From contig DATLGB010000223.1 of the NCBI GenBank assembly GCA_035540675.1, positions 4,502 to 68,501 on the forward strand: a DNA stretch of 64,000 bases, given 5' to 3'. The position numbers and the translations under genes were made by a program. The notes below the pieces were generated by a model. The model ran no database searches and had not been told where the DNA came from. It was given only the letters and a program-made list of their open reading frames with translations. This DNA is from Solirubrobacteraceae bacterium. GTDB taxonomy: Bacteria; Actinomycetota; Thermoleophilia; Solirubrobacterales; Solirubrobacteraceae. Shown piece by piece: positions 30,461-46,834 of the stretch (positions within the stretch are counted from its first letter, which is position 1; each line of letters opens with the position of its first letter).

Positions 30461-31549
30461 TCAGCAGATGCGCGGGAGCGGGTCGCCCGCGAGCATGTCG
30501 ACCACGCGGGACCCGCCGAAGGAGGTCTCGAGCACGACCATGCCCGGGGGCTCCGCGCGGACCTCGCCCACCACCGCGGCGTCGGTCCCCAGCGGATGGG
30601 CGCGCAGCGCCGCCAGCGCCTCCGCCTCCGCCTCCGGCGCCACCACCGCCAGCAGCTTGCCCTCGTTGGCCACGTAGAGCGGGTCGATGCCGAGGATCTC
30701 GCACGCGCCGGCGACGGCGGGACGCACGGGGATGGAGGCCTCGTCGAGCACGATCGCGACCTCGGCGCTCATGGCGAGCTCGTTCAGCACGGTGGCGACG
30801 CCGCCGCGCGTCGGGTCGCTCATGCAGCGCAGGTTCTCGCCCGCGGCGGCGCGCAGGGCGCCGGCGAGCTCGTGCAGCGGCGCCGAGTCGCTGCGCAGGT
30901 CGGCTTCGAGCTCGAGGCCGCCGCGGGCGACCATGATCGCCATCCCGTGATCGCCGATCGTGCCGGAGCACAGCACGCGATCGCCCGGCCGGATCGCCAT
31001 CGGCGAGAGCCGGTGGCCCTCGCGCACGCCGATGCCCGTCGTGCTCACGTACAGGCCGTCGGCCTTGCCGCGCTCGACCACCTTGGTGTCGCCGGTGACG
31101 ATGGCGACGCCGGCGCCGGCGGCCGCTTGCGCCATCGAGGCGACGTAGCGCTGGAGGTCGGAGACCGGCAGCCCCTCCTCGAGGACGACGCCCAGCGCGA
31201 GGAAGCACGGCCGCGCGCCGCTGACGGCGAGGTCGTTGATCGTGCCGTGCACCGCCAGCGAGCCGATGTCGCCGCCCGGGAAGTCGAGCGGCCGGACCAC
31301 GTAGGTGTCCGTCGAGATCGCGAGCGGCGCGCCGCCGGCGTCCACGACGGCGGCGTCGCCGAGCTCGGCCAGCGCCGGGTTGTCGAAGGCTCGCGCGAAG
31401 ACGGTCTCGATCAGGACGTGCGACGAGCGCCCGCCGGCGCCGTGGCTGAGCGTGATCCGCTCATCCATCAGCTTGACGTGCGGGCGACGCCGGCGGCGCT
31501 CGATCGCCTCGAGCACCTCCTCCTCGGAGCGCGTCGTCCTGCCGATCAC
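30461..31549 (-). CDS. hypE: Hydrogenase maturation protein HypE (carbamoyl dehydratase)
   Basis: C-terminal part of ORF 30461..31852. LSHGAGG, GDTKV, C-terminal PRIC. GTG 31549 overlaps the hypD stop (GTGA). Alternative ATG at 31471 (MDERITLSHG). Confidence 0.9.
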   Translation of the reverse strand: MIGRTTRSEEEVLEAIERRRRRPHVKLMDERITLSHGAGGRSSHVLIETVFARAFDNPALAELGDAAVVDAGGAPLAISTDTYVVRPLDFPGGDIGSLAVHGTINDLAVSGARPCFLALGVVLEEGLPVSDLQRYVASMAQAAAGAGVAIVTGDTKVVERGKADGLYVSTTGIGVREGHRLSPMAIRPGDRVLCSGTIGDHGMAIMVARGGLELEADLRSDSAPLHELAGALRAAAGENLRCMSDPTRGGVATVLNELAMSAEVAIVLDEASIPVRPAVAGACEILGIDPLYVANEGKLLAVVAPEAEAEALAALRAHPLGTDAAVVGEVRAEPPGMVVLETSFGGSRVVDMLAGDPLPRIC

Positions 31550-32679
31550 GCCGGCTCCATCGCCGCGTCGCGGCCGGCGCGGCGCTGGAAGCGGCCGAAG
31601 TTGTAGTACGCGGCGCAGGCGCCCTCGCTCGACACCATGCAGGTTCCGATCGGCCGGTCCGGGGTGCAGGCCGTGCCGAACACCTTGCACTCCCACGGCT
31701 TGATCACGCCCTTGAGCACCTCGCCGCACTGGCACGCCTTCGGGTCGGCCACCCGCACGCCGGGGACCGCGAAGCGCACCTCCGCATCCCAGTCGGCGAA
31801 GTCGTCGCGCAGCTTCAGCGCGCTCTGGGAGATGAAGCCCAAGCCACGCCACTCGAACGTCGTCCGCAGCTCCATCGTCTGCGCGATGGCCTGCAGCGCG
31901 AGCGGGTTGCCCTCCTCGCGCACCACGCGCGTGTACTGGTTCTCGACCTCGCTGCGACCCTCGGCGAGCTGCTTGAGCACCTGGTAGACGCCCTGCAGGA
32001 TGTCCAGCGGCTCGAACCCGGCCACGACGACGGGGCGCCCGTGGTCGCGCGCGATCCAGCGGTACGGGCGGGTGCCGATGACCGTCGACACGTGCCCCGG
32101 CCCGAGGAACCCGTCGAGGCGGAGGTCCGGCGAGTCGAGGATCGCTCGGATCGCCGGGATGATCGTCACGTGGTTGGCGAACACGCTGAAGTTGCGGATG
32201 CCCTCCGCGCGGGCGCGCAGCAGCGTCAGGGCCGTCGAGGGCGCCGTGGTCTCGAACCCGATCGCGAAGAACACGACCTCGCGGTCAGGGTTCTCGCGCG
32301 CGACCTTCAGCGCGTCCAGCGGCGAGTAGACCATCCGCACGTCGGCGCCGCGCGCCTTGGCGTCGAGCAGCGAGCCGCGGCTCGCGGGCACCCGCATCAT
32401 GTCGCCGAACGTGGTGAAGATCACCTCGGGGCGCTCGGCGATGGCGACGGCGTCGTCCTGCCGGCCCATCGGGATCACGCAGACGGGGCAGCCGGGGCCA
32501 TGGACCAGCTCGACGTTGGGCGGCAGCAGGTCCTCGATGCCGTGCTTGTAGATCGTGTGCGTGTGGCCGCCGCACACCTCCATCACCTTGTAGCCGCGGC
32601 CGGGATCCACCAGCGCCGCGATCTGCGCCGCCAGGCGCCGGGCGACGTCGCCGTCGCGGTACTCGTCGACGAACCTCAT
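31546..32679 (-). CDS. hypD: Hydrogenase maturation protein HypD
   Basis: MRFVDEYRD, MEVCGGHTH, GPGCPVCV, FxPGHVS-type motif GPGHVSTVIG, C-terminal Cys cluster. Confidence 0.95.
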   Translation of the reverse strand: MRFVDEYRDGDVARRLAAQIAALVDPGRGYKVMEVCGGHTHTIYKHGIEDLLPPNVELVHGPGCPVCVIPMGRQDDAVAIAERPEVIFTTFGDMMRVPASRGSLLDAKARGADVRMVYSPLDALKVARENPDREVVFFAIGFETTAPSTALTLLRARAEGIRNFSVFANHVTIIPAIRAILDSPDLRLDGFLGPGHVSTVIGTRPYRWIARDHGRPVVVAGFEPLDILQGVYQVLKQLAEGRSEVENQYTRVVREEGNPLALQAIAQTMELRTTFEWRGLGFISQSALKLRDDFADWDAEVRFAVPGVRVADPKACQCGEVLKGVIKPWECKVFGTACTPDRPIGTCMVSSEGACAAYYNFGRFQRRAGRDAAMEPA

Positions 32680-34010
32680 GGCCTCCCGATCCGGTCGAGC
32701 AGCAGGTGCGAGATCGTGGCGTGCGCCTCCTGCAGGCGCGGGACGTAGTCGCCGGGGACGCCGATGTGGTGGTCAAGCCAGCCGGCGCCGGCCAGACGGC
32801 CCCCGTCGTAGCCCGTGACGGCGACGGTCAGCATCCCGCGGCGGCGGGCCTCCTCGAGCCCGGCAAGGACGTTCGGCGACGACCCGCTCGTGGAGAACGC
32901 GATCGCCACGTCGCGCGCGCGGCCGAGCGGGATCAGCTGCCGGGCCCAGACGTTCTCGAAGCCGACGTCGTTGGCCACCGCGGTGACCGTCGGCGCGTCG
33001 TCGACGAGCGCGACCGCCGGCCAGCCCGCCGCCTGCGCGTCGAAGGCGAGGTCCTGGGCGTCGGTGGCCGAGCCGCCGTTGCCGAACGCGAGCAGGCGGC
33101 CGCCGGCGTCGAGGCGCGCGCGCACGGCCGCGGCGCACGCCGCGATCGCGTCGGCGTCGATCGTCCGCCGCAGCTCGATGGCGTCGCGCCCCTTGCGCAG
33201 TGTCGACGCGCGCACGTCGGCCAGGACGGCCTCGAGGTCGCGCTCGTCACCTTCGAGGAACGGATACAGGAAGCCCGTCGCCTCCGCCGGCGCGGCCGCG
33301 CGCTCGAGGCGCTCCAGCGCGACGCCGGCGTGGCAGAGCAACCGGTCGCCGGGTGCGACGGGCCCGACGAGGTCCACCGCGACCGTCTCGCGCGCGCCGC
33401 CGTGCTCGACGACCGCCGCCGTCCCCTCCACCGCGACGACCTCGACCTCCACCGCCACGTCGCCGCAGGTCAGGCACGCGTCGTCGAGCAGCCCCGGGTG
33501 CTCGAAGAAGACGTGCACGAGCTCCCACAGCACGTGGTACGTCGTCTCCTGCACCTCCTGGACGATCTCGGGCGCGGCAGCGGGCACCACGAACGCGTGG
33601 TCGGCGGCGAGCCGCTCCGCGCCGGCACCGAGCGCGATCGTCAGCATGCCGCGCCGTCGCGCTTCCTCCAGGAACGCGTCCAGCCGGCCGGGCTCGTGCG
33701 CCATCCCGATCGCGATGTCCTGCGGTCCGCCGAACGCCAGCGCCCGCTCCGGGCCGCCGGCGGGCGCGAGCGCCGGCAGCGCCCGCTTGCCGACGATCAC
33801 GGGGTGCATGAACTCGACCGCCACGTGGGCGGCGTCCGTGACGGCGGCGCCCGCGCCGTGCGCGATCAGCACGCCGCCGCGCGCGAAGGCGCGGGCGAGG
33901 TCGTGGCAGGCGCGCGCCAGCCGGTCCTGCTCGCGCTCGAGGAACGCCTCGAGCACCCGCTCGCGCTCGGCGATCGCGGTGGCGCTGGGACTGGTGGCGG
34001 AGGGCGTCAT
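32676..34010 (-). CDS. Fusion protein: degenerate SIS domain, HypC/HupF-like OB domain, then GmhA-like SIS domain
   Basis: ATG 34010 (ATGA with the hypC stop); its stop overlaps the hypD start (ATGA). The N-terminal SIS lacks S/T motifs (HGAGAAVTDAAHVAVEF). Middle CLTCGDVAVEVEVVAV...GDRLLCHAGVALERL. C-terminal AFGNGGSATDAQDLAFD and AFSTSGSSPNVLAGLEEARRRGMLTVAVTG. Confidence 0.7.
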   Translation of the reverse strand: MTPSATSPSATAIAERERVLEAFLEREQDRLARACHDLARAFARGGVLIAHGAGAAVTDAAHVAVEFMHPVIVGKRALPALAPAGGPERALAFGGPQDIAIGMAHEPGRLDAFLEEARRRGMLTIALGAGAERLAADHAFVVPAAAPEIVQEVQETTYHVLWELVHVFFEHPGLLDDACLTCGDVAVEVEVVAVEGTAAVVEHGGARETVAVDLVGPVAPGDRLLCHAGVALERLERAAAPAEATGFLYPFLEGDERDLEAVLADVRASTLRKGRDAIELRRTIDADAIAACAAAVRARLDAGGRLLAFGNGGSATDAQDLAFDAQAAGWPAVALVDDAPTVTAVANDVGFENVWARQLIPLGRARDVAIAFSTSGSSPNVLAGLEEARRRGMLTVAVTGYDGGRLAGAGWLDHHIGVPGDYVPRLQEAHATISHLLLDRIGRP

Positions 34011-34285
34011 TCGATCGAGGACGACCGCAGGTCGTCGAGCTCCTGCTCGAAGGCCTCGCCGAGCTCGACGAGGAACGCGCGCGTGGCCTCCGCCTCGGCC
34101 TCGTCGATCTTCGACATCGCGAAGCCGACGTGGATGAGCACCCAGTCGCCGACGTCGACGGCGTCGGGGCCGCCGCTGAGCAGGCCGACGTTGATCGCAC
34201 GCCGCACCCCCGAGACCTCCGCCTTGGCGATGTGGTGCTCGGGGTCGACCCACTCTACGATCTGGCCGGGAATTCCTAGGCACAT
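34007..34285 (-). CDS. hypC: Hydrogenase maturation chaperone HypC
   Basis: MCLGIPGQIVEW...GDWVLIHVGFAMSKIDEAEA. C-terminal part of ORF 34007..35698. Confidence 0.9.
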   Translation of the reverse strand: MCLGIPGQIVEWVDPEHHIAKAEVSGVRRAINVGLLSGGPDAVDVGDWVLIHVGFAMSKIDEAEAEATRAFLVELGEAFEQELDDLRSSSIE

Positions 34286-36462
34286 GACGCACGCATCCTC
34301 GCGGCCGCGACCGCAGCTTGTCCATAGGCGATCCCGCCGTCGTTCGGAGGCAGACGCCGGTGGGTCAGGACGCGGAACCCCGCCGCCTCGAGCCGCCGGC
34401 GCAGCGACCGGGCCAGCCGCCGGTTCTGCAGGCACCCCCCGCTGAGCGCGACGGTGTCGCCCGGAGTCGCCGCGGCGGCGCAGGCGGCGGCGAAGGCCGC
34501 GGCGAGGCCCTCGTGCACCGCGGCGGCGATCGCCGCCGCCGGGCGCCCGCCCCGCAGATCGTCGTGCGCGGCCCGCACGAGGTCGCTGCCGCGGATCACG
34601 CCGCCGGCGACCCGGCAGGGATAGGCGCGCGCCTCGGCGTCGCCAGCGAGCTGCTCGAGCTCGATCGCGGCCTGCCCCTCGTAGCTGATCACCTCGCGCA
34701 CGCCGAGCAGCGCCGCGACCGCGTCGAGCAGCCGCCCGGCGCCCGACGACGGGGGCGCGTTGACCGCCAGCGACTGGCGAACGAGCCTCCAGCGCTCCCA
34801 CGGCACCGGGCGCCCCGCCCGCTCGAGGTGCGCCGCGGCCGCGCGCCACGGCTCGCGGATGGCGGCCTCGCCTCCGGGCAGCGGCACCGGCTCGAGGTGC
34901 GCGACGCGCTCGAAGTCCGCCAGGTCGCACCGCAGCAGCTCGCCGCCCCAGAGCGTGCCGTCGGTCCCGTAGCCCGTCCCGTCGAGCACGATCGCCAGCG
35001 CGGGCGCCGTCTCGCCGTGCTCGGCCAGGCAGGCGGCGGCGTGCGCGTGGTGGTGCTGCACGCCGACGAGCTCGGCCTCCTGCTCCAGCGCCCAGCGCGT
35101 CGAGCGGTACTCGGGGTGCAGGTCGTGCGCGACGACCGCCGGCCGAATGCCGAGCATCTCCAGGTACAGGCGCAGGTCGTCGCCGAAGGCGAGCACCGCC
35201 GCCTCCGAGGAAAGGTCGCCGAGGTGCCCCGACGGGAACGCGCGCGCCCCGACCGCGACGCAGAACGCGCTCTTGAGGTCGGCTCCGGCGGCCACCAGCG
35301 GCTCCGGCGCCGCCAGCGGCAACGACAGCGGCGCCGGCGCCAGCCCGCGCGAGCGCCGCAGCGGATGCGCCGCCCGCACCACCGAGTCCTCGCAGCGCCG
35401 CTGGATTGGGCGGTCGTGGCCGAGGAAGGCGTCCGCGATGTCGCGCAGCCGGTCGTGCGCCTCGTCGTCGCCGACCGCGATCGGCTCGTCGCCGCGGTTG
35501 CCGCTGGTCATCACGAGCGGGCCGCCGAAGTCGTGCGCCAGCAGGTGGTGCAGCGGCGTGTAGGGGAGCATCACCCCGAGCTCCCGGGCGCCGGGCGCGA
35601 CCGACGGCGCGACGGGCGCGGCGGCCAGGCGCTCGAGCAGCACGATCGGCCGTGATGGCGCTTGCAACAGCGCCCGCTCGTCCGGCGATACCCGGCACAG
35701 CGCGTCCGGGTCGCCCGTCATCAGCGCGAACGGCTTGGCGTCGCGCGCCTTGCGCGCGCGCAGCCGCGCGACCGCGAGCTCATCGGCGGCGTCGCAGGCG
35801 AGATGCCAGCCGCCGAGGCCCTTCACGGCGAGGATGCCGCCGGCGCGCAGCACCGCGACCGCCTCCTCGAGCGGCATCGACAGGCGCGGCCCGCAGGCGG
35901 GACAGGCGATCGCCTCGGCGTGGAAGCGGCGGTCGGCCGGATCCTCGTACTCCGCCCGGCAGTCGCCGCAGAGGGGAAAGCCGGCCAGGGTCGTCCGCTC
36001 GCGGTCGTAGGGCAGCGCCCGCACGATCGTGAAGCGCGGCCCGCAGTTGGTGCAGGTCAGGAACGGGTAGCGGTGGCGCCGGTCGGCCGGGTCGAACAGC
36101 TCCCGCAGGCAGTCGGCGCACGTCGACAGGTCCGGCCCGATCGCCGGCGCCCCGGCGCCCCCGGCGCTCGTCGCGACGGCGAACCGGCGCTCTCCGCTCG
36201 GCGCCACGGACGTCTGCACGACGCCGTCGAGGGCGGCCGCGGCGGGCGCCTCGGCCACGAGCGCGGTGGCGAACGCATCCAGCGCCGCCGGCGACCCCTC
36301 GACCTCGACCTCGACGCCGGCGGCGGTGTTGCGGACATGGCCGCCGAGGCCGTGCCGGACGGCCAGGCCGTGCACGAAGGGCCGGAACCCCACGCCCTGC
36401 ACGATGCCCGTGATCTCGAGGCGGCGGCGCGCGGCCGGGACTGCGTCGGAGGCGACCGCCAC
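34276..36462 (-). CDS. hypF: Carbamoyltransferase HypF
   Basis: Acylphosphatase-like GIVQGVGFRPFV. Zn fingers CADCLRE..CTNCGPRFT and CGDCRAEY..CPACGPR. YrdC-like and Kae1-like C-terminal domains. Confidence 0.95.
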   Translation of the reverse strand: MAVASDAVPAARRRLEITGIVQGVGFRPFVHGLAVRHGLGGHVRNTAAGVEVEVEGSPAALDAFATALVAEAPAAAALDGVVQTSVAPSGERRFAVATSAGGAGAPAIGPDLSTCADCLRELFDPADRRHRYPFLTCTNCGPRFTIVRALPYDRERTTLAGFPLCGDCRAEYEDPADRRFHAEAIACPACGPRLSMPLEEAVAVLRAGGILAVKGLGGWHLACDAADELAVARLRARKARDAKPFALMTGDPDALCRVSPDERALLQAPSRPIVLLERLAAAPVAPSVAPGARELGVMLPYTPLHHLLAHDFGGPLVMTSGNRGDEPIAVGDDEAHDRLRDIADAFLGHDRPIQRRCEDSVVRAAHPLRRSRGLAPAPLSLPLAAPEPLVAAGADLKSAFCVAVGARAFPSGHLGDLSSEAAVLAFGDDLRLYLEMLGIRPAVVAHDLHPEYRSTRWALEQEAELVGVQHHHAHAAACLAEHGETAPALAIVLDGTGYGTDGTLWGGELLRCDLADFERVAHLEPVPLPGGEAAIREPWRAAAAHLERAGRPVPWERWRLVRQSLAVNAPPSSGAGRLLDAVAALLGVREVISYEGQAAIELEQLAGDAEARAYPCRVAGGVIRGSDLVRAAHDDLRGGRPAAAIAAAVHEGLAAAFAAACAAAATPGDTVALSGGCLQNRRLARSLRRRLEAAGFRVLTHRRLPPNDGGIAYGQAAVAAARMRASCA

Positions 36463-36468: not shown

Positions 36469-36822
36469 CTACGGCGTCGCCGGCCGCGGCAGGTCGGCGC
36501 GCGAGTCGATGTCGGCGGGCGAGGCGGCGGCCGTGCCGGCCTCCGTCGGGCCGCCCGAGGTCGTCTGCTCGGCGGGTGGCGCCGGCTCGCCCACGACCTC
36601 CTGCAGCGCGGTGGCCACCTGGGTGAGCGCCGCGTTGACGTCGCCGAGCGCCTGGCCGATCGGCGCCGTCTGCGACTCGATCGCGCGCACGCCGAACGTC
36701 ACGAGGCCGAGGGTCTTGGAGATGTTGCGCAGCGTCCGGGCGATCGCGATCAGGTAGCCCGCGAGCACGACGACGAGCAGCAGGACCTCGACGAGCGTGA
36801 GGACGATCAGCAGGGTGTTCAC
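36469..36822 (-). CDS. Small single-pass membrane protein, paralog 4 of 4 (117 aa)
   Basis: GTG 36822 (GTGA with the upstream stop). VNTLLIVLTLVEVLLLVVVLAGYLIAIARTLRNISK..., Pro/Ala-rich tail. Ends 7 nt before the hypF start. Confidence 0.6.
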   Translation of the reverse strand: MNTLLIVLTLVEVLLLVVVLAGYLIAIARTLRNISKTLGLVTFGVRAIESQTAPIGQALGDVNAALTQVATALQEVVGEPAPPAEQTTSGGPTEAGTAAASPADIDSRADLPRPATP

Positions 36823-37091
36823 GATTGGCCCCTCCCGGCTTGGCGATGGCGCTCGACTTCCTCGGCGAGCTCGGTTCCACGGGCGACGGTCGCCCCCAGC
36901 AGGTACGACGTCTGCGTGTTCTGGGCGACGAGCTTGCCGGTGTCCCACAGCACGGCCACGCCCTCGTCGATCCGCTTGACCGTGCGGCGCAGCGCCTCGA
37001 GGAGGGCCCACACCACCAGGGCCACCACGAGACCCACCGCGAGCGTGATCCACCACGCGGTCTGGTTCGACGTCATCGCGATCACGGTCAT
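36819..37091 (-). CDS. Small single-pass membrane protein, paralog 3 of 4 (90 aa)
   Basis: Track ORF. ATGA overlap. AWWITLAVGLVVALVVWALLEALRRTVKRIDEG... Confidence 0.6.
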   Translation of the reverse strand: MTVIAMTSNQTAWWITLAVGLVVALVVWALLEALRRTVKRIDEGVAVLWDTGKLVAQNTQTSYLLGATVARGTELAEEVERHRQAGRGQS

Positions 37092-37360
37092 ACGAGCCCC
37101 AGCTTCTTGAGGTAGCCGACGGCGAGGCCCGGAACGGCGCCGCCGAGGCGGCGGGTCGTGGCGAGCTGCTCGACGCCGTCGAGGTTGGTGGCGATGCCCA
37201 CGCCGGCCTGCAGGATGTCCTTCGCGTAGGAGTCGATCTCGCGCGCGGGCGCCATGATCCGCTGGAAGAGCGCGATCACGACGGCGAGCACCACGACGCC
37301 GAGCACGAGCCCGACGATCGCGAGCACGGCGCCGGCGGTCGACACGGCCAGGACGCTCAT
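37088..37360 (-). CDS. Small single-pass membrane protein, paralog 2 of 4 (90 aa)
   Basis: ATG 37360 (ATGA overlap). MSVLAVSTAGAVLAIVGLVLGVVVLAVVIALFQRIMAPAREID... Confidence 0.6.
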   Translation of the reverse strand: MSVLAVSTAGAVLAIVGLVLGVVVLAVVIALFQRIMAPAREIDSYAKDILQAGVGIATNLDGVEQLATTRRLGGAVPGLAVGYLKKLGLV

Positions 37361-37870: not shown

Positions 37871-37891
37871 CGTGTGGGAGGGAGAGCGACG

Positions 37892-39287: not shown

Positions 39288-41189
39288 GTGTGCTTCAAGA
39301 ACCTCCCCATCGAGTTCGACGAGGGCGGCGTCGCCACCCTGCGCGGCGGCATCCCCAATCCCTACGCCGTCGAGGTGTCAAAGCCCCACGTGGGGATGAC
39401 CAACGACGAGCAGCGCGAGCAGATCGAGCGCCTCGTCGCGTCCAACGGGCACATCCGCGAGATCAACATGGACCCGGTCACGCGCGTGGCCGGCGCCATC
39501 GCGCTCAACATCGCCGCCAACCTCGACGACGGCAAGTACCTCGACGCGCGCTCGCAGGCGACGCTGTTCCGCGGCTACGAGGTGATCCTCATGGGCCGCG
39601 ACCCGCGCGACGCGATCTTCGTGTCCTCGCGCGCGTGCGGCGTCTGCGGCGGCGTCCACGCTCACTGCTCGGCCTACGCGATCGAGATGGCGATGGGCGT
39701 CGCGCCGCCGCCGATGGGGACCGTCGTGCGCAACCTCGGCGAGGCCGCCGAGATGGGCTACGACAACCCGCTGCACCTCTACCTGCTGGCCGGCCCCGAC
39801 TACTCCGAGATCGTCGTCCGCGCCACCAACCCGGAGATCTGGGAGAAGGCGCAGACGTGGAAGTGCCCCGGCGCCGAGCACCACGGCTTCAAGACCATGG
39901 GCGAGCTGATGACGGCGCTGAACCCGCTGACGGGCCGCCTGTACCGCGAAGGACTGGACTTCACCCGGCTGGCGCGCGAGATGTTCGTGCTGCTGCACGG
40001 CAAGTACCCGCACCCGCAGGCGATCGTCCCCGGCGGCGTCACCTCGACGATCTCGCTGCAGACGCTCAACGAGTACCAGGCCAAGCTCGGGCGCATCTTC
40101 GACTACGCCCAGCGCCTGGTCGCGGTGTGGGACGACATCCCGGAGTTCTTCTACGAATGCGACGAGCGCTACAAGCTCGTCGGCTCGCGGCCGGTCAACC
40201 TCGTCGACACCGGCTTCTGGGACGACCCCTACGCCTACGACGCCACGTACGAGAACTGCAACGAGTGGGGCGCGCGCCGCTGGTCGACGCCGGGCGCGAT
40301 CATCGACGGCGAGCTGGTCACGACGCGCCTGACCGACCTCAACATGGGCATCGAGGAGTTCGTCGAGCACTCCTACTACGAGCAGTGGGCGGGCGACCGC
40401 TACGAGACCGACCCGCTCGGCAACCCGCTCTCGCCCTACCACGCGTGGAACAAGCAGACGCTGCCCAAGCCGAGCGGGCGCAGCTGGAAGGACAAGTACA
40501 CCTGGGCCTGCACGCCGCGCTGGGACCGCCACGTCGTCGAGGCCGGCGCCTACAACCGCCTGTTCATGACGGCGCTGGCGCAGCAGCAGCCCGAGAACGA
40601 CTTCATCGAGGCCACCGGCACCGGCATCCGCATGTCGATCCCCAAGGGCTACACGAAGGCCGCCGAGGCCGAGTGGCGGATCCCGGACTCCTGGAACGCG
40701 TTCGAGCGCAACCGGGGGCGCGCCTACCACTACCTGTTCTCGCAGCTCGTCGGCCTGTCGAGCCTGCTCGAGGCCTACAAGCTCTTCCGCGCGGGTGAGA
40801 CGCGGGTCGCCGCGCTGAACTCCAAGGAGCTCGAGAAGGCGATGCCGCGCGACGAGCGGCGCGGCGTCGGCTTCTGGGGCGCCGGCCGGGGCTGGCTGAC
40901 GCACCACATCGTCATGGACAACGGCAAGATCACCAACTACCAGATCAACACCCCGTCGACCATCAACGCCTCGCCGCGCGACCCGTGGGGACAGCCCGGG
41001 CCGTACGAGCAGGCGGTCCAGAACACGCCGATCCTCGAGAAGTTCTCGAGTCCCGACGAGTTCACGTCGATCGACATGCTGCGGGCGCTGCGGTCGTTCG
41101 ACCCGTGCATGCCGTGCACGACCCACACGGCCACCGGCAACGGCACCGTGATCGGCCAGGTGAACACCTGCTCGTGCGGCGCCGACTGA
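39288..41189 (+). CDS. [NiFe]-hydrogenase large subunit (subgroup unassigned)
   Basis: L1 RACGVCGGVHAHC, L2 RSFDPCMPCTTH followed by a 20-aa cleavable-type tail. GC3-rich from the GTG at 39288. Atypical DPVTRVAGA and GAGRGWLTHH. Confidence 0.9.
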   Translation: MCFKNLPIEFDEGGVATLRGGIPNPYAVEVSKPHVGMTNDEQREQIERLVASNGHIREINMDPVTRVAGAIALNIAANLDDGKYLDARSQATLFRGYEVILMGRDPRDAIFVSSRACGVCGGVHAHCSAYAIEMAMGVAPPPMGTVVRNLGEAAEMGYDNPLHLYLLAGPDYSEIVVRATNPEIWEKAQTWKCPGAEHHGFKTMGELMTALNPLTGRLYREGLDFTRLAREMFVLLHGKYPHPQAIVPGGVTSTISLQTLNEYQAKLGRIFDYAQRLVAVWDDIPEFFYECDERYKLVGSRPVNLVDTGFWDDPYAYDATYENCNEWGARRWSTPGAIIDGELVTTRLTDLNMGIEEFVEHSYYEQWAGDRYETDPLGNPLSPYHAWNKQTLPKPSGRSWKDKYTWACTPRWDRHVVEAGAYNRLFMTALAQQQPENDFIEATGTGIRMSIPKGYTKAAEAEWRIPDSWNAFERNRGRAYHYLFSQLVGLSSLLEAYKLFRAGETRVAALNSKELEKAMPRDERRGVGFWGAGRGWLTHHIVMDNGKITNYQINTPSTINASPRDPWGQPGPYEQAVQNTPILEKFSSPDEFTSIDMLRALRSFDPCMPCTTHTATGNGTVIGQVNTCSCGAD

Positions 41190-41202: not shown

Positions 41203-41688
41203 GTGATCCTCGTCGCCGGGGTCGCCGAGCTCTACCAGGGCGACCTCGACCTCGGGCGCGTCGCCGTCGCGCGGCTGCAGGAGGCCGGCCTCGGCGACGA
41301 CGTGCGGGTGGAGGAGCTCTCCTACGGCGCCGTGGCCGTGACGCAGCGGCTGCAGGAGCTGCGGCCGGACGCACTCGTCCTGATCGCGGCGCACCCGCGC
41401 GGCCGCGAGCCCGGCAGCGTCGAGCGGCGCGACGTCGGCCCCAGCGACCTCCCCGCGGCCGAGCTGCAGACGGCCATCGGCGACGCGATCACCGGCTACG
41501 TGACGGTCGACCTGCTCGTCGAGGTGGCGACGGCGCTGGAGGCGCTGCCGCCGCGAGTGGTCGCCATCGAGGTCGAGCCGGCGCGGGTCGAGCCGGTCGA
41601 CGAGCTGTCCGAGCCGGCGCGGGCGGGGCTCGAGCGGGCGCTCGAGCTCGTGCGCACGGAGGTCGAGCGCCTGCGGGCGCGCAGCTAG
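41203..41688 (+). CDS. Degenerate HyaD/HupD-family hydrogenase maturation protease-like protein
   Basis: Fold-level resemblance (ILVAGVAELYQGDLDLGRVAV...ALVLIAAHP...). By my alignment the GNxxxxD(D/E)GxG motif and the Glu/Asp/His metal ligands are not conserved. Confidence 0.55.
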   Translation: MILVAGVAELYQGDLDLGRVAVARLQEAGLGDDVRVEELSYGAVAVTQRLQELRPDALVLIAAHPRGREPGSVERRDVGPSDLPAAELQTAIGDAITGYVTVDLLVEVATALEALPPRVVAIEVEPARVEPVDELSEPARAGLERALELVRTEVERLRARS

Positions 41689-42419
41689 AGCGCCGGCACG
41701 ATCTCGTCCGGCGGCTCGAGCCGGGCGAGGTGCTGCGGGCGGACGGCGATCCGCCGCCCGTCGGGCTGCTCGATCACGAGCGCACCGTCGCGCAGCACGC
41801 TCGTCGCGGTGCCGGTGATCTGGACTCCATCCGGCCAGGTGGGGATGAGGTGCGCCCGGACCGGACGGCCGAGCGTCGCGCAACGCTCGCGATAGCGCGC
41901 GAGGGCGGCGTCGTCGGGCTCCTGGAGGCGCTCCACGGCCGCCGCCAGGCGGGCGATCAGCTCGCCGCGCGGGGAGGGCGCGTCGAGCACGAGCAGGTTG
42001 ACGACCGCCCACTCCACGCCGGTGGGACCGAGCCCCGCGTGCCCGGCCACGTCGGCCAGCCGGCGCTCGGTCGCCCACACCTGGTCGGGCCACTCGATCG
42101 CCGCAGCGGGATCGACCGCGTCGACCACGGCGGCCGCGGCGGCGACGAACAGCCAGCCCTCGTCGTCGGGCGCGAGCTGCGGCCGCAGCAGCAGCGAGAA
42201 GCACAGGTCGCGGCCCGGGCGAGGCGTCCACGGCAGGCCGCCGCGGCCGCGCGCGGCGGCCTGGTAGTCGGCGGTGACGACGGCGCCCGCAGGCCCGCCG
42301 GCGCGCGCCCAGGCGACGGCGTCGGCGTCGGTCGACATGACGGCGGGATAGGTGCGGACGGGGCGATCGCCGAGCGCGCGCGCGAGCGCGTCGGGGGTGA
42401 GGTCGTCGCTCAGCGCCAC
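41685..42419 (-). CDS. Biotin/lipoate protein ligase (BirA catalytic domain)-like protein
   Basis: Track ORF. ADYQAAARGRGGLPWTPRPGRDLCFSLLLRP resembles the GRGRxGRxWxSPxGxxL motif, but degenerate. Confidence 0.5.
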   Translation of the reverse strand: MALSDDLTPDALARALGDRPVRTYPAVMSTDADAVAWARAGGPAGAVVTADYQAAARGRGGLPWTPRPGRDLCFSLLLRPQLAPDDEGWLFVAAAAAVVDAVDPAAAIEWPDQVWATERRLADVAGHAGLGPTGVEWAVVNLLVLDAPSPRGELIARLAAAVERLQEPDDAALARYRERCATLGRPVRAHLIPTWPDGVQITGTATSVLRDGALVIEQPDGRRIAVRPQHLARLEPPDEIVPAL

Positions 42420-43645
42420 GGCCCGGGATCACCGTGGTCGAGCGCCGCCTGCGCGAAGACGTCCTGCAGCCGCATCCACTGCGGGATGTGGAAGCGCGCC
42501 ATGGCGCGGCGGACGGCCTCGCGGAACGTCTCGGCCGTGTCAGCGTCGGTCGCCGCCAGCGCCTGCATCGCGCTCGCCACGAGCCGGTCGAGCGCGTCCG
42601 ACGGCAACTCGAGCAGGGCGCCGAGCCAGATCTGCGCGACGTCGGTGGGGTCGCGACGGGCGCGCGCGTGGACCGCTACCCACTCCGCGGCATCGGAGCG
42701 GCGGGCGTCGTCGCCGGCGTCGGCGCTGCGCAGCAGCTCCTCCCGCGCGAGCTGCTCGGCCGCGAGGTCGCCGGCGGCATCGAGGGCGGTGCCGAGGTCC
42801 TCGGCCTGCGGGACCCCCAGGCGCCGGATTAGCTCAGCCGCCTGCGCGCGCACCGGCTCGGCGGCGCCGGGCGCCGCGAGCGCCTGCCGCGCCGCCAGGC
42901 GCGCCCGTGGCGCGTCGCCCGCGCGCTCGAGCGCCAGCGCCAGGTTGGCCTTGGCCATCGCGAAGGCGTCGGGGCGCAGCGCGCGCGGGCTCGAGGCGAC
43001 GGCGACCGCGAACGCCTCGGTCGCGGCCTCGGGACGTCCCCCGGCCAGTCGCGCCAGCCCCAGCGCGTTGGCGGCGGCGGCGCGCCCGGGGGCGTCCCCC
43101 GCGCGCTCGCTCAGCTCCACCGCAGCCTCGAGTGCCGCCTCGGCACCGTCGGCGTCGCCGGCGTCGAGCCGCGCGGCGCCGAGCTCGCGCAGTGCGGCGG
43201 CGGCCTGCGCCGGCACGCGCCGCTCGTCGAGGCGCTCCACCGCCCGCTCGAGCACGCGGGCGGCGGCCTCGGCGCGTCCTCCCTCGCGCATCACCAGCCC
43301 GAGGTTGTACAGCGCGGCGCCCTCGTCGAGGGGCAGGCCGGCGGCGGCCAGCCCGGCGGCGGCGTGCTCGAGCGCCCGCTCGGCGACGTCGAGGCGGCCG
43401 GCGGCACGCAGCGTGGCGCCGAGCCCGTTGAGCGCCTTCGCCTGCTCCGGACGCGCGCCGCGCAGGCCGAACAGGCCGGCCGCGGTCGTGAACGCCTCCT
43501 CGGCGGCGTCGAGCGCGCCCTGCGCGAGGAGCACGCCTCCGAGGTGGAACTGGACGGTGGCGTGCTGGAGCGGGTGGCGGTGCGCGTCGTAGCGCTCCAG
43601 CCGCCCGCGCAGCTCGTCGAGGACGTCGTCGGGAGCCGCCGCCAC
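42410..43645 (-). CDS. TPR-repeat protein
   Basis: Track ORF. At least 6 Ala/Leu/Gly-rich TPR-like repeats (ALNGLGATLRAAGRLDVAERALEHA...). Unrelated C-terminal helical domain. Confidence 0.6.
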   Translation of the reverse strand: MAAAPDDVLDELRGRLERYDAHRHPLQHATVQFHLGGVLLAQGALDAAEEAFTTAAGLFGLRGARPEQAKALNGLGATLRAAGRLDVAERALEHAAAGLAAAGLPLDEGAALYNLGLVMREGGRAEAAARVLERAVERLDERRVPAQAAAALRELGAARLDAGDADGAEAALEAAVELSERAGDAPGRAAAANALGLARLAGGRPEAATEAFAVAVASSPRALRPDAFAMAKANLALALERAGDAPRARLAARQALAAPGAAEPVRAQAAELIRRLGVPQAEDLGTALDAAGDLAAEQLAREELLRSADAGDDARRSDAAEWVAVHARARRDPTDVAQIWLGALLELPSDALDRLVASAMQALAATDADTAETFREAVRRAMARFHIPQWMRLQDVFAQAALDHGDPGPWR

Positions 43646-44266
43646 CTAGGCGTCCGCGCCGCCGCGCGGCAGGCGCGTCTCGATCTGCAGCAGCCCGGCA
43701 TCGGCCGGCCCCGCGGCCGGGGGCGGGAAGGCGTCGATCTGCAGCAGCGTCGGTCCGGGCGGCGGATGCGGCAGGGCGTCGTCCTCCTCGACCTCCATGG
43801 CCACGAAGCCGGGCATGCCCTCGCGCAGCGCCTCCTCCACGCCCCGGCGCAGCGTGATCGTCGACGCGGTGCAGCCCGAGCAGGCGCCCGAGAGCCGCAC
43901 GCGCACGACGCCGCCGGCGGCCTCGACGACGCTGACGTCTCCGCCGTGCGAGTGCAGGTAGGGGCGAACGCCGTCCAGCGCCGCCTCGGCCGCCGCGCGC
44001 TCGTCGACGCCGACGGCATACGCGTTCAGCAGCCAGCCGACGGCCGGGTCGGCGCCGCGCAGCCGCTCGACCTCGTCCGGATGCAGCGCGGCGGCGAGGC
44101 GGTGGAGCGCGTGTCGGTGGACGGCGTCGATGCCGTCGAGCAGCGAGAAGACCCGCGCGCGCACGGCCTCGTCGAGAGCGTCGACCGCCCGCAGGTCGTC
44201 CTCCATGTCGTCGAGCAGGTCGTCGAAGTCCGTCACCGGCGAAGTACCTTTCGTCACTTGGACCAT
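43646..44266 (-). CDS. NifU C-terminal (Nfu)-domain protein
   Basis: ATG 44266 in the frame of ORF 43646..45682. VRPYLHSHGGDVSVVEAAGGVVRVRLSGACSGCTASTITLR. Confidence 0.75.
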   Translation of the reverse strand: MVQVTKGTSPVTDFDDLLDDMEDDLRAVDALDEAVRARVFSLLDGIDAVHRHALHRLAAALHPDEVERLRGADPAVGWLLNAYAVGVDERAAAEAALDGVRPYLHSHGGDVSVVEAAGGVVRVRLSGACSGCTASTITLRRGVEEALREGMPGFVAMEVEEDDALPHPPPGPTLLQIDAFPPPAAGPADAGLLQIETRLPRGGADA

Positions 44267-44731
44267 ACCGGCCGCATCATCGTCGCGTGCGTGGGCAACG
44301 TCCTGCGGCTCGACGACGGTTTCGGGTACGCGGTCGCCGAGCGGCTCGGCGACGTGCCGCCGGGCGTCGAGGTGCTGGAGAGCGGCATCGGCGGCATGAT
44401 GGTCGTGCAGGAGCTGCTGGTCGGGGCGGACGGGCTGATCATCGTGGACGCCGTGGACCGCGGCGCGGCGCCCGGCACGCTGTTCGTGATCGAGCCGGAG
44501 GTGGAGCCGCCGTCGCAGGTCGGCGACATCCACCTGTCCAACCCGGACAAGGTGCTGTCGCTGGCCGGCGGCCTCGGGTGCCTGCCTGAGCGGCTCCTGC
44601 TGGTCGGCTGCCAGCCGCGCGACGTCGAGGGCATGGGTCGCCGCCTGTCGCCGGAGGTCGAGCGAGCCGTGGACCTGGCGGTCGACCGCATCCACGCGAT
44701 CCTGCGCGAGTGGACGGCCGCCCCGGCGTGA
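44258..44731 (+). CDS. Hydrogenase maturation endopeptidase (HyaD/HupD/HybD family), canonical
   Basis: IIVACVGNVLRLDDGFGYAV, LIIVDAV, GDIHLSNP. The start is uncertain: TTG 44258 is the only in-frame start upstream of the first strand, and it overlaps the divergent NifU-like start by 9 nt. Confidence 0.75.
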   Translation: MDHTGRIIVACVGNVLRLDDGFGYAVAERLGDVPPGVEVLESGIGGMMVVQELLVGADGLIIVDAVDRGAAPGTLFVIEPEVEPPSQVGDIHLSNPDKVLSLAGGLGCLPERLLLVGCQPRDVEGMGRRLSPEVERAVDLAVDRIHAILREWTAAPA

Positions 44732-45336
44732 GCGGCGACCGCGAGCGCTGGAACGAGCGGCACGCCGCCGCGCTGGCCGCCGGGCGGGCGAACGGGCCGC
44801 CGAGCGCGTGGCTGCTCGAGCACGCCGGTGTCGTGGCGGCGCAGCCGCGCGGCCGCGCGCTCGACGTCGCGTGCGGCCTCGGCCGCAACGCGCTGCACCT
44901 CGCCGCGATGGGCTTTCGGGTTCTCGCCCTGGACGTCTCCGACGTCGCGGTCGAGCACGTGGCGCGGCGCGCGCGCGAGCGGGGTCTGGCGGTGGAGGCG
45001 CGACGGGTCGACCTCGGTCGCGAAGCGCTGCCGCCGGGACCCTTCGAGGTCGTCGTGGTCGCGTCCTTTTTGGACCGCCGCCTGCTCGGGCCGCTGGCGC
45101 GGGCGCTCGCCCCGGGCGGGCTGCTGCTCTACGACACGTTCCTGGCCGATGCGACGGCGACCTGCGGCCCGCGCGATCCCGCGCACGTCCTGCGGCCGGG
45201 GGAGCTCTCCGCGGCCTTCGCCGGCCTCGAGCGGCTGGATCTGCGCGAAGGCGCCCCGGCGCCCGGCGAGCGCGCGCGGGCCCGGCTCCTCGCCCGCCGC
45301 CGCGACGGGTTGCCGGTGTGTGTTCCAGACACGTAG
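44728..45336 (+). CDS. Class I SAM-dependent methyltransferase (TehB/TPMT-like)
   Basis: GTGA-coupled to the protease. WNERH...ALDVACGLGRNALHLAAMGFRVLALDVS. Confidence 0.7.
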   Translation: MSGDRERWNERHAAALAAGRANGPPSAWLLEHAGVVAAQPRGRALDVACGLGRNALHLAAMGFRVLALDVSDVAVEHVARRARERGLAVEARRVDLGREALPPGPFEVVVVASFLDRRLLGPLARALAPGGLLLYDTFLADATATCGPRDPAHVLRPGELSAAFAGLERLDLREGAPAPGERARARLLARRRDGLPVCVPDT

Positions 45337-45346: not shown

Positions 45347-46099
45347 ATGAAGCTCGTCGTGGCCGGCAAGGGCGGCTCGGGGAAGACGTCCATCTCGGGG
45401 ACGCTGGCGCGCCTGCTCGCCCGCTCGGGCCGGCGCGTGCTGGCGATCGACGCCGACTCCAATCCGAACCTGTCGCTGACGCTCGGCATCCCGGCCGACC
45501 GCTTCAACTCGGTGCCCACGCTGCCGCGCGACCTGCTGCAGCGCACGCCGGATGGCGCACGGCTGTCGAAGTCGCTCGACGAGATCCGGTCCTCGCACTC
45601 CCTCGACGGGCCCGACGGCGTCAGCCTGCTCGTCATGGCCCACCCGCAGCACGCGGGCACCGGGTGACTGTGCTCCATGCACGCTACGGTCCGTAGCGTC
45701 ATCGAGGTGTCAGGCGAGGGTCCCGCGGACGTGACGATCCTCGACACGGAAGCGTCGCCGGAGCACCTCTCGCGCGGGACGGCGATGCACGCCGACGCGA
45801 TGCTCGTGGTCGTCGAGCCCTACTTCAAGTCGCTCGAGACGGGCCGGCGGATGGCGGCGCTCGGCACCGACCTCGGGCTGCCGCGCGTCGCGCTCGTGGC
45901 CAACAAGATGCGCGACGAGCGCGACGAGGCCGCCGTGCGCGAGTTCGCCGAGCAGCACGGGCTCGAGGTGGCGGGGACCATCCCCTTCGACGAGGCGATG
46001 CCGGCCGCCGAGCGCGCCGGCGTCTCACCGCTCGACCACGATCCCGGCGCGCCGAGCGTCGCGGCGATCGGCGAGCTCGCCCGGAGCTTCGTGCGATGA
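45347..46099 (+). CDS. CooC/AcsF-like MinD-family Ni-insertion ATPase with in-frame TGA (codon 107) replacing the first Cys of the CxC metal site; probable selenoprotein (alternatively a pseudogene)
   Basis: Tail of track ORF 44828..45667 and ORF 45677..46099 share one frame. Joined: MKLVVAGKGGSGKTS (deviant Walker A)...LLVMAHPQHAGTG-U-LC-SMHATVRSV...ILDTEASPEHLSRGT...VVVEP. 250 aa, typical CooC length. U-x-C aligns with CooC Cys-x-Cys. Confidence 0.7.
45681..45699 (+). promoter_or_regulatory. Candidate bacterial SECIS hairpin (CooC-like gene)
   Basis: UGA-N13-ACGCUAC(G)[GUC](C)GUAGCGU. 7-8 perfect bp, apical GGUCC/GUC loop. Confidence 0.6.
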
Positions 46100-46461
46100 G
46101 CGACCTCGAGCGGCTGAAGATCCTCGACGAGGTCCTGCAGGCGATGTACTGGATGCACGCCGAGGGCATCTCGTCGGTACCGACCGCGGACGAGCTCTCG
46201 CGCTTCCTGGGCGTGCCGTCGGGGACGCTCGCGCCCCACCTGGAGGGCTTCGCCGACGACGGCCTGCTCGAGCGCGAGGCGGGCGGCTACCGCCTCAGCG
46301 CCGAGGGGGAGCAGCGCGGCAAGCGGACGTTCGCCGACGAGTTCGCGGGCCTGACCGGCGCCTCGCACGGCGAGTGCGACGAGAACTGCTGGTGCCACGA
46401 TTCGCCGGAGGCGGCGGCGAGCTGTCTGGAGGAGCGCAGCGGGCATGCCCACCAGCACTGA
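46096..46461 (+). CDS. Small DtxR-like winged-helix protein with Cys/His-rich C-terminal tail (metal sensor or metallochaperone candidate)
   Basis: ATGA-coupled to the CooC-like gene. LQAMYWMHAEGISSVPTADELSRFLGVPSGTLAPHLEGFADDGLLERE... then HGECDENCWCHDSPEAAASCLEERSGHAHQH. Confidence 0.55.
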   Translation: MSDLERLKILDEVLQAMYWMHAEGISSVPTADELSRFLGVPSGTLAPHLEGFADDGLLEREAGGYRLSAEGEQRGKRTFADEFAGLTGASHGECDENCWCHDSPEAAASCLEERSGHAHQH

Positions 46462-46834
46462 GCCGGCGGCGCCGCTGCTGCCGCGCAACTTCCTGCGCCC
46501 GTGCGTCCTGCTGTTGCTGCGCGAATCCCCCGCTCACGGTTACGACCTGCTCGAGCGGCTCGCGGCCTTCGGGTTCGCCAAGCAGGATCCGGGCGGCCTG
46601 TACCGCGCGCTGCGGGCGCTGGAGGACGAGGGCCTCGTGCGCTCCTCGTGGGAGGCGTCCGACCAGGGCCCGGACCGCCGCATCTACGAGATCACGCGCG
46701 CGGGCGCCGAGCACCTGCACGAGCACGCGCTCGCGCTGCAGTCGACCGCCGACGTGCTGCACGCGTTCCTTGGCCGCTACGAGGAGTTCGTCGCGCTGCC
46801 GGAGCGCCCCCGCGCGGCGCGGGCGCTGCGCTGA
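46445..46834 (+). CDS. PadR-family transcriptional regulator
   Basis: LLLLRESPAHGYDLLERL...GGLYRALRALEDEGLVRSSWE...RRIYEITRAG. Confidence 0.85.
   Translation: MPTSTEPAAPLLPRNFLRPCVLLLLRESPAHGYDLLERLAAFGFAKQDPGGLYRALRALEDEGLVRSSWEASDQGPDRRIYEITRAGAEHLHEHALALQSTADVLHAFLGRYEEFVALPERPRAARALR

Follow-up and report, generated by a model that had tools for sequence, protein, structure and literature searches.

A stretch of 64,000 nucleotides from a Solirubrobacteraceae bacterium (contig DATLGB010000223.1; hereafter the window) carries at positions 30461–46834 a [NiFe]-hydrogenase gene cluster that includes hypF, hypC, hypD and hypE, and in which neither hypA nor hypB was found. Two of its genes are the main subject of this report: one encodes an ATPase of the CooC family, and the other a small acidic winged-helix (wHTH) protein with a Cys/His-rich tail. 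It is proposed here, with a probability of roughly 0.55, that these two proteins carry out nickel insertion for the group 1l hydrogenase encoded beside them, replacing HypA and HypB. Additionally, judged from its sequence and that of its orthologues, the ATPase is a real selenoprotein that had gone unrecognised before.

A predicted selenocysteine in the CooC-family ATPase

The ATPase gene occupies positions 45347–46099 of the forward strand and encodes 250 aa when the TGA codon at 45665–45667 is read through as selenocysteine (Sec, U), which gives the motif GTG-U-L-C-S-M-H. Hundreds of close, full-length homologues carry Cys where the window has TGA. The TGA is recurrent, being found at that codon in 20 of the 36 orthologues from genome loci (drawn from the 59 loci described below) and in 52 of 120 full-length orthologues overall, metagenome contigs included. 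Such TGA-type genes occur in Thermoleophilia, Rubrobacteria, Nitriliruptoria, Chloroflexota and Acidobacteriota; these TGA-type orthologues are 42–76% identical, and the reading frame is conserved 3′ of the TGA in every one of the TGA type. In a neighbour-joining tree of the ATPase, at least 13 switches between Sec and Cys were counted.

The bacterial selenocysteine insertion sequence (SECIS) is a stem-loop lying just downstream of the UGA codon, with G/U in the apical loop. Folding of the window sequence placed a SECIS-like hairpin at 45681–45699 of the forward strand, with a stem of 7–8 bp and GU in the loop. Across the TGA-type genes this hairpin consists of a stem of 7 bp capped by a C/G-G-U-G/C-C loop, and it begins 17 nt past the U of UGA (+17 to +35). 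Its stem positions were 86% paired in 56 distinct TGA-type sequences, with compensatory changes in four of the seven stem pairs (43 cells), and none of 500 shuffles reached the observed pairing or covariation. Shifted registers were 17–42% paired, and the same stem columns were 49% paired in 69 Cys-type sequences. RNAalifold, run on the first 18 downstream sequences, had proposed another, weak structure of five pairs (−3.6 kcal/mol), which was dropped in favour of the 7-bp stem that keeps register and covariation, and the single-sequence fold z-score of −1.5 is uninformative at this GC content. Repeated Sec/Cys switching together with a covarying hairpin is the standard signature of a selenoprotein family; thus, because the TGA is recurrent and the covarying hairpin is confined to TGA-type genes, the ATPase gene can be assigned from sequence as a true selenoprotein gene. 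An earlier note on this DNA, made from the letters alone, had put Sec in brackets before its CooC-like ATPase, a guess that these data uphold.

The TGA could alternatively be a true stop, in a pseudogene or between two small genes, or a sequencing error of TGC. TGC becomes TGA by a single-base change, no Rfam family, SECIS families included, matched around the TGA, and the GenBank annotation divides the gene into HVL97620.1 (106 aa, 'AAA family ATPase') and HVL97621.1 (122 aa, 'hypothetical protein'). This is nevertheless a very improbable explanation, and the pseudogene version of it is effectively excluded, given that the TGA is shared by 52 independent orthologues with the downstream frame intact, that the compensated hairpin is exclusive to TGA-type genes, that the switches on the tree are typical of selenoprotein families, and that GCT and CGT, codons ending in T, occur in the window stem in a genome where G or C fills about 95% of third positions. 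The gene calls of JGI and ENA likewise split the selenoprotein and, since it is annotated as two unrelated small proteins, it is invisible to surveys of selenium use. No relevant paper was retrieved when full texts were searched for CooC in combination with selenoprotein.

Relationship of the ATPase to CooC

Among PDB entries, the best relative of the ATPase is CooC1 of Carboxydothermus hydrogenoformans (3KJE; phmmer E=1.3e-27, 27% identity over the full length), whereas MinD was matched at 1.2e-9 and the Mrp-type HypB (3VX3) at 1.8e-5. The window TGA aligns with Cys112 of the Ni/Zn-binding C112-x-C114 of CooC1, with U-L-C standing where CooC1 has C-Y-C. Foldseek, applied to the model of a 75%-identical Cys homologue of the ATPase, also ranked 3KJE first, by a small margin. 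The deviant Walker A motif AGKGGSGKTS (residues 6–15) is invariant in all orthologues, G-C/U-x-C-x-x-H is invariant across phyla, and the metal motif C-x-C or U-x-C was present in 120 of 120 orthologues. No NCBIfam model reached its cut-off for the ATPase. On this evidence, the product of the gene labelled CbiA is, by sequence, a CooC-family ATPase, and it would be expected to bind nickel.

The earlier note had also singled out this ATPase as the only candidate nickel NTPase in the window, which was supported. A second MinD/CooC-like ATPase (Pfam CbiA) is encoded at 52846–53613 of the reverse strand, beyond the cluster, and has no CxC motif in the alignment; its counterpart directly follows the PadR gene in three relatives (L003, L009 and L062). 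In loci of Pseudonocardiales and Mycobacteriales (L006, L018, L004 and L017), up to four clustered MinD/CooC-like paralogues lie beside the hydrogenase, one of them with CxC.

Absence of linked hypA and hypB

The GC content of the window is 74% (71–79%), and the raw lists of open reading frames (ORFs) were useless because at such a content spurious frames dominate. They were replaced by a gene caller based on codon-usage log-odds, trained on the frames with the clearest third-position GC, and the called products were scanned against Pfam and NCBIfam. No HypA (PF01155) or HypB/CobW (PF02492) domain was detected in any called gene of the 64-kb window, and phmmer and tblastn searches of all six frames with HypA and HypB queries from E. 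coli, C. necator, Chloroflexota and Propionibacteriales gave no match in it. The features looked for were a CobW/HypB/UreG domain with NKxD for HypB, and an MHE start with a Zn ribbon for HypA. This negative result is meaningful because the same queries recover the HypA of the related locus L047, at 1e-17 to 1e-21. The statement of the earlier note that neither gene is visible in the window was therefore borne out. A small protein with two CxxC pairs (g17, 17134–17562) was considered as a cryptic HypA and rejected, as it has no MHE motif, no Pfam HypA match and another spacing.

Over about 1.41 Mb from about 140 related loci, HypA was seen only in L047 and L054, and HypB only in L041, as an N-terminally truncated and frameshifted remnant. 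In L041, from a metagenome-assembled genome of Rubrobacter, the remnant (12744–13013) comprises only the C-terminal half of HypB and directly follows hypE and a SIS gene, where C. necator has an intact hypA-hypB pair in its group 1h cluster; the remnant looks like a decaying relic. In L047, from Chloroflexota, an intact HypA lies after the SIS gene and is followed by a likely fragment of a second, 1h-like small subunit (20988–21881; QPSIEDVLLGNIPGLPKVILHN). Because of this apparent small-subunit fragment, the HypA of L047 may belong to a neighbouring hydrogenase. Nevertheless, as HypA occurs in two group 1l loci, CooC and HypA are not strictly exclusive. A weak HypB match in L062, a contig of 1.06 Mb, was traced to a His-rich loop in a NicO transporter; on this contig, a pair of NicO-family transporter genes (18797–20765) that encodes this long loop lies 9 kb from the CooC-like gene.

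Linkage of the ATPase to the hydrogenase

A survey based on the large subunit, with one genome per species, gave 59 loci from Actinomycetota, Chloroflexota, Acidobacteriota and Pseudomonadota, of which the 29 of at least 15 kb were used for presence counts. In these long loci, the CooC-like ATPase was present in 26, the Cys/His protein in 25 and a degenerate maturation-protease paralogue in 28; hypC, hypD, hypE and hypF were linked in 17–23 of the 29, HypA in one and HypB in none. A reverse survey starting from the ATPase retrieved 80 metagenome contigs, nearly all of which, when at least 8 kb long, carry hydrogenase subunits, and neither HypA nor HypB was found in these 80. The ATPase-centred contigs L062 and L063 also hold hydrogenase subunits. 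The synteny is thus conserved over the 59 genome loci and the 80 metagenome loci, as the earlier note had proposed to check. That note had also named co-occurrence with carbon monoxide dehydrogenase (CODH) as a possible contrary outcome; the ATPase travels with the hydrogenase, and no CODH link was seen, CODH genes not having been directly searched for. Since its neighbours are hydrogenase genes, the ATPase belongs to the CooC family by sequence but is not a CODH maturation factor by context.

Gene order differs between lineages. In the window, start/stop overlaps (GTGA, ATGA and 17 nt) join the endopeptidase and methyltransferase genes and the CooC, wHTH and PadR genes, and PadR follows the wHTH gene in actinobacterial loci. 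The translational coupling of CooC and wHTH genes reported by the earlier note is therefore real in the window, but it is confined, as a tight arrangement, to the actinobacterial clade. Outside this clade, the CooC gene is placed 5′ of the small subunit, and the wHTH gene is flanked by the degenerate protease and NifU-like genes. In L033, L040 and L057, the CooC-like gene is immediately preceded by a small ORF with a Cys-rich C-terminal end (GCRCGCCQP or CGCGCCDP), which recalls the tri-cysteine C-terminus reported for HylTM4. Such a locus pattern would be expected had HypA/HypB been displaced by a CooC-based module in the group 1l lineage, the absence of hypA/hypB being observed within the loci surveyed.

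The winged-helix Cys/His protein

The protein encoded at 46096–46461 of the forward strand has 121 aa, is acidic and ends in HGECDENCWCH...C...HAHQH. No Pfam or NCBIfam family matched it, and an exhaustive search of 1.84 billion representatives gave a family of 177 relatives. The parts conserved across phyla are an N-terminal helix with DE-I/V-LQxxYW...GEGFG, the motif FADEF, and H-G-E-C-x3-4-C-x0-1-C plus a fourth Cys. An AlphaFold2 model (pLDDT 79) predicted a winged helix with a long helix behind it, and its Cys/His tail is poorly ordered. All orthologues are acidic (net charge −9 to −17, pI 4.3–5.0; −14 for the window protein), with the helix-turn-helix segment included, which argues against DNA binding.

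Among the best 150 of the 177 representatives, about 11 are fusions of 265–342 aa in which the Cys/His domain follows a maturation protease. Some of these carry a canonical protease of HycI type that exceeds the Pfam cut-off and shares 46% identity with the window endopeptidase, and others carry the degenerate paralogue, 39% identical to that of the window. These fusions tie the Cys/His protein to recognition and cleavage of the nickel-loaded large subunit, and they too argue against a DNA-binding role. By sequence, the protein appears to be a new small putative metal-binding partner, linked to the protease step by gene fusion.

Proposed nickel insertion and alternative explanations

In the maturation of [NiFe]-hydrogenases, HypC, HypD, HypE and HypF build and insert the Fe(CN)2CO group, nickel is inserted next, and an endopeptidase then trims the C-terminal tail of the large subunit. 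In the pathway proposed here, the enzyme would be a cytoplasm-facing, membrane-associated hydrogenase of the group 1l type with its own maturation set, in which HypF, HypC, HypD and HypE, together with the SIS protein, would build and insert Fe(CN)2CO. Nickel would be delivered by the CooC-family ATPase rather than by HypB with HypA. Upon ATP binding, the ATPase dimer could hold Ni(II) between two U/C-x-C-x-x-H loops, a site that in the window organism would consist of two selenolates and two thiolates, and ATP hydrolysis would release the metal to the large subunit. Next to the proteases, the acidic His-Cys4 winged-helix protein may contribute to this step as a HypA-like adaptor or by carrying metal. 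The degenerate protease paralogue might hold the uncleaved C-terminus, and the canonical endopeptidase would then remove the 20-residue tail. Nickel binding, the direction of transfer and the replacement of HypA/HypB are the steps that we infer.

Several observations weigh against this proposal. CooC has been documented solely as the factor that inserts nickel into CODH. HypA lies beside group 1l genes in L047 and L054, that is, some lineages keep it alongside the CooC-like gene, and three of the 29 long loci have no CooC-like gene within reach. The related loci cover only 10 kb on either side of the gene, and in bacteria hypA and hypB are often unlinked from the structural genes. In most phyla, the ATPase gene is found 5′ of the small-subunit gene and not with the hyp genes, an arrangement that would also suit maturation of the small subunit. 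The closest folds to the Cys/His protein are metal-dependent repressors (DtxR/MntR/IdeR) and MarR repressors, matched weakly (E of about 1e-3, TM 0.5–0.6). Finally, none of selA, selB, selC and selD was seen in the window or in the loci.

The most serious competing explanation is that HypA and HypB encoded elsewhere in the genome insert the nickel and that the CooC-like ATPase and the Cys/His protein are auxiliary, much as SlyD and HypX are add-ons in other hydrogenase systems; such a role might be nickel storage or buffering, faster loading at trace nickel, or protection of the site under air. The two loci with HypA, the 10-kb reach of the survey and the general tendency of hypA/hypB to be unlinked all speak for it. 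It is nonetheless considered the less likely account, since hypCDEF are linked in most long loci and hypA/hypB are not, the sister type (group 1h of C. necator) keeps hypA-hypB right after hypE, L041 has only a decayed HypB at that position, and the HypA of L047 perhaps serves another enzyme. It could also be proposed that the ATPase is an Mrp/NBP35-like Fe-S carrier or assembly ATPase, acting on the small subunit or on the membrane-anchor proteins. Its gene directly precedes the small subunit in non-actinobacterial loci, the MinD/Mrp/NifH superfamily includes Fe-S carriers with nearly equal Foldseek fold scores, and NifU-like genes are part of the cluster. However, this seems quite unlikely, because the similarity to CooC1 (1e-27) far exceeds that to MinD (1e-9) and Mrp (1e-5), the motif is the C-x-C of CooC and not the C-x-x-C of Mrp/NBP35, and a first Cys exchangeable with Sec, followed by an invariant His, suits a nickel site.

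The Cys/His protein could be a metal- or redox-sensing transcription factor of the ArsR/DtxR/MarR kind and not a maturation factor. The modelled winged helix with its long helix and the nearest folds would fit such a regulator, JGI labels some homologues as DtxR- or IscR-family regulators, and the gene is co-transcribed with PadR in Actinomycetota. This is regarded as unlikely, although less so than the Fe-S assignment of the ATPase, given that the fold matches are weak, that negative charge prevails throughout the family, and that conservation falls on the N-terminal helix and the Cys/His site but is poor in the putative recognition helix, which is acidic. In addition, the fusions connect the protein with hydrogenase maturation proteases, and in most phyla its gene lies between the degenerate protease and NifU genes. 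Nickel insertion by the CooC-like ATPase and the Cys/His protein thus remains the favoured reading.

Fit of the hydrogenase to the group 1l type

The large subunit (HylL-like, 633 aa, Pfam NiFeSe_Hases) is encoded at 39288–41189 and the small subunit (HylS-like, 469 aa, recognised by Pfam, without a Tat motif) at 37874–39283, both on the forward strand. The nearest PDB entry to the large subunit is 5AA5_C, from the group 1h enzyme of Cupriavidus necator (E=5e-144; next entry 1e-55), and the small subunit matches 5AA5_A at E=1e-99. The large subunit is 39–42% identical to the 1h enzymes of C. necator, Streptomyces, Methylocystis and Mycobacterium, and 54–56% identical to those of Rubrobacter, Chloroflexota, Acidobacteriota and Gammaproteobacteria loci that have the hylTM arrangement. 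Its NiFe ligand pairs are found in RACGVCGGVH near residue 115 and in DPCMPCTTH at residues 605–613, after which a C-terminal tail of 20 aa is left for cleavage. In the small subunit, the proximal cluster has four Cys, the window reading GMSCDGCS where 5AA5_A has GLGCDGDS, with the Asp ligand of 1h; a C-terminal extension reaches about 65–75 aa beyond the 1h end, the alignment to 5AA5_A stopping at residue 393 of 469.

A previous study of group 1l described as its marks a four-Cys proximal cluster and a C-terminal extension of about 100 aa relative to 1h, together with five short single-pass genes (HylTM1–5) between hylS and hylL, which are common but not universal (Ortiz et al., bioRxiv 10.1101/2020.08.06.239558, Suppl. 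Note 1). In the window, four genes for single-pass membrane proteins of 117, 90, 90 and 83 aa, homologous to HylTM and each with one hydrophobic N-terminal helix, lie at 36469–37608 of the reverse strand, and a DUF1059 protein (Pfam E=1.7e-16) is encoded at 37605–37790 of the same strand. This block (36469–37790) is divergently upstream, and the two subunit genes are adjacent. In L047, L049 and L057, homologues of the four membrane-protein genes separate the small-subunit gene from that of the large subunit, and loci with membrane genes between the subunits belong to Chloroflexota, Rubrobacteria and Gammaproteobacteria. Because of the four-Cys proximal cluster, the C-terminal extension and the HylTM-homologous membrane proteins, the enzyme is assigned to group 1l, a placement based on identities and synteny. 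As far as sequence can tell, the locus fits an actinobacterial version of the published group 1l (Hyl) type in which the membrane-protein genes have moved upstream.

The suggestion of the earlier note that the cluster represents a pathway variant not yet worked out must consequently be narrowed. The cluster type matches the published group 1l, whose gene set was drawn by Ortiz et al., with the CbiA, PadR, SIS, TPR, DUF1059 and small transmembrane genes left without interpretation (10.1101/2020.08.06.239558, Fig. S5 and Suppl. Note 1). That work gives no role for the CbiA gene and makes no mention of CooC or selenocysteine. In the later literature searched, no role was given to the CbiA, DUF1059, PadR, SIS or TPR genes, and no discussion of the CooC-like gene of group 1l clusters was found. 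The cluster type is therefore known, and it is the nickel-insertion genes that appear to be a new variant. Group 1l has been reported as the prevailing hydrogenase of Antarctic desert soils, is found in nine or ten phyla and is biochemically uncharacterised; it has been proposed to scavenge hydrogen from air and is also present in marine bacteria. Two isolates encoding it did not consume H2 in culture.

Accessory genes and neighbourhood

Codon-based calling with the Pfam and NCBIfam scans recovered all the genes that had been claimed for 30461–46834, and this interval is filled by exactly that set. On the reverse strand lie hypE (30461–31549; Pfam AIRS/AIRS_C, C-terminus PRIC), which adjoins hypD in 23 related genome loci; hypD (31546–32679; Pfam HypD, E=1.7e-157); a GmhA-like SIS-HypC-SIS fusion of 444 aa (32676–34010; Pfam SIS_2 and HupF_HypC, NCBIfam gmhA under its cut-off); hypC (34007–34285; Pfam HupF_HypC, E=7e-25); and hypF (34276–36462; domains Acylphosphatase, zf-HYPF, Sua5 and HypF_C). 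The fusion is homologous to the SIS gene between hypC and hypD in C. necator (E=1.3e-51), and a SIS gene occupies this position in group 1h and group 1l clusters.

The degenerate protease paralogue (41203–41688, forward strand; NCBIfam hydrog_prot at 40 bits, cut-off 47) directly follows the large subunit in 50 of the 59 loci. In the alignment with canonical proteases, its conserved Asp and His are replaced, VDA having become IAA and the His Gly or Thr, and the two lost positions are presumably metal ligands. It is followed on the reverse strand by a biotin/lipoate-protein-ligase (BPL)-like gene (41685–42419; NCBIfam birA_ligase, sub-threshold), a tetratricopeptide-repeat (TPR) gene (42410–43645; Pfam TPR_12) and a NifU-like Fe-S protein gene (43646–44236; Pfam NifU) related to HhyE/HylE but without the Rieske part. 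The BPL-like gene was found in 20 and the TPR gene in 17 of the 59 loci, both confined to the actinobacterial clade. A NifU-family gene follows the large subunit in C. necator, and L062 has a NifU+Rieske fusion at the place of the window NifU-like gene; in L062, MoxR-like AAA and VWA (CoxE-like) genes come after the endopeptidase.

Ahead of the CooC operon on the forward strand, the canonical large-subunit endopeptidase of the HycI/HupD type that had been claimed there was confirmed (44258–44731), with a Pfam HycI match (E=2.6e-17) and intact GNVLRLDDGFG, VDAVD and DIH motifs. The adjoining gene (44710–45336, forward strand) encodes a class I SAM methyltransferase that the earlier note had likened to TehB/TPMT and linked to selenium. 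This link was not sustained: the matches are to the generic Methyltransf_25/11, that to TehB is limited to the SAM-binding part, and the gene is lineage-specific and outside the conserved set. It was rejected as a selenium-related partner, being present in none of the 59 genome loci and in two of the 80 metagenome loci (L067 and L069). A PadR-family regulator (46445–46834, forward strand; Pfam PadR, E=1e-19) closes the cluster.

Adjoining hypE, a DnaB replicative helicase gene (27675–30353, reverse strand) is split by an intein with a LAGLIDADG homing-endonuclease domain. On the other side, paralogous modules of BNR/sialidase-like and Pro/Ala-rich anchored proteins (47204–49423 and 53619–56073) flank the second MinD/CooC-like ATPase, and the region 47204–56073 additionally encodes an 830-aa BNR and cell-wall-binding protein. 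At 56107–58839 of the reverse strand lies the gene for a 910-aa protein, nearly all of which consists of RTX-like repeats of the GGxGxD type. Two further regions (10198–15409 and 17679–20529) hold a NirD/L-like siroheme decarboxylase pair, the haem genes for a glutamate-1-semialdehyde aminomutase-like protein and ALAD, a Rieske/cytochrome b/cytochrome c complex, TatA/TatC and a MerB-like alkylmercury lyase.

Implications

Nickel insertion by HypA and HypB is treated as universal for [NiFe]-hydrogenases, and a 2025 review still lists six Hyp proteins (ABCDEF) as necessary. The broader generalisation, that group 1l enzymes have dispensed with HypA/HypB and are loaded by a CooC-type ATPase (with Sec in many lineages) together with a protease-docking His-Cys4 protein, is offered tentatively, as an idea with the odds somewhat against it. 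If true, it would provide the first metallochaperone that is a selenoprotein and the first CooC to act on a hydrogenase, so that CooC would no longer be a chaperone of CODH only. Trace-gas H2 oxidation would be selenium-dependent in Thermoleophilia, Rubrobacteria, Chloroflexota and Acidobacteriota, and heterologous production of an active group 1l enzyme would need both genes and selenium. Additionally, a metallochaperone site with a natural Sec/Cys pair would allow one to ask why selenium serves nickel handling under air.

Comparison with known systems

The window locus shares with the group 1l clusters of Ortiz et al. the four-Cys proximal cluster, the long C-terminal extension of the small subunit, the single-pass membrane proteins and the HupD and HypF genes, and differs in that its membrane-protein genes are divergently upstream and not between the subunit genes. 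With the group 1h cluster of C. necator plasmid pHG1 it has a common backbone of large subunit, NifU, protease, hypF, hypC, SIS, hypD and hypE. However, the C. necator cluster has the Asp proximal ligand, hypA-hypB, hoxN and DUF5947/DUF6084 genes, with a large-subunit identity of 41%, and is without the CooC-like gene, the degenerate protease and the winged-helix Cys/His gene, all of which are present in the window. A plasmid collection, in which only group 1h relatives were found, was used as the 1h control. In [NiFeSe]-hydrogenases, Sec likewise replaces a nickel-ligating Cys; there it lies in the active site of the enzyme, whereas in the window Cys is retained in the large subunit (DPCMPCTTH) and it is the presumed chaperone that contains Sec.

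The use of a MinD-type ATPase in place of HypB has been put forward for Thermococcales, a precedent to which the earlier note had appealed. It holds in part: the Mrp/MinD-type HypB of T. kodakarensis (3VX3, 5AUN–5AUQ) is also a MinD-superfamily ATPase standing in HypB's place in hydrogenase maturation, but it belongs to another MinD/Mrp subfamily, and its similarity to the window ATPase is confined to the P-loop (residues 4–39, E=1.8e-5). The archaeal HypB of Thermococcus, moreover, works through HypA and is not known to have a CxC metal site.

The likeness to HypA and HypB themselves concerns the proposed step, in which a large subunit already bearing Fe(CN)2CO would receive nickel ahead of C-terminal cleavage. 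Both HypB and CooC belong to the SIMIBI class of NTPases, and each has at its dimer interface a Cys/His metal site that is coupled to the nucleotide (review PMC9164220). The CooC-like protein is nevertheless an ATPase with a deviant Walker A and not a G3E GTPase, and the small window protein, although it has a four-Cys site as HypA does, is a winged-helix protein without the N-terminal MHE nickel site.

The closest counterparts are CooC1 (3KJE–3KJI) and the CooC of Rhodospirillum rubrum, with which the window ATPase shares the deviant Walker A GKGGxGKT, the aligned C-x-C and a length of about 250 aa. Unlike the CooC of CODH systems, it is linked to a [NiFe]-hydrogenase and not to cooS/acsA, its hosts belong to aerobic soil and marine lineages, and its partner is an acidic His-Cys4 protein and not CooT or CooJ. 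It differs from CooC1 itself in that the first Cys of the motif is Sec in about half of the members and that an additional invariant His stands three residues past the motif.

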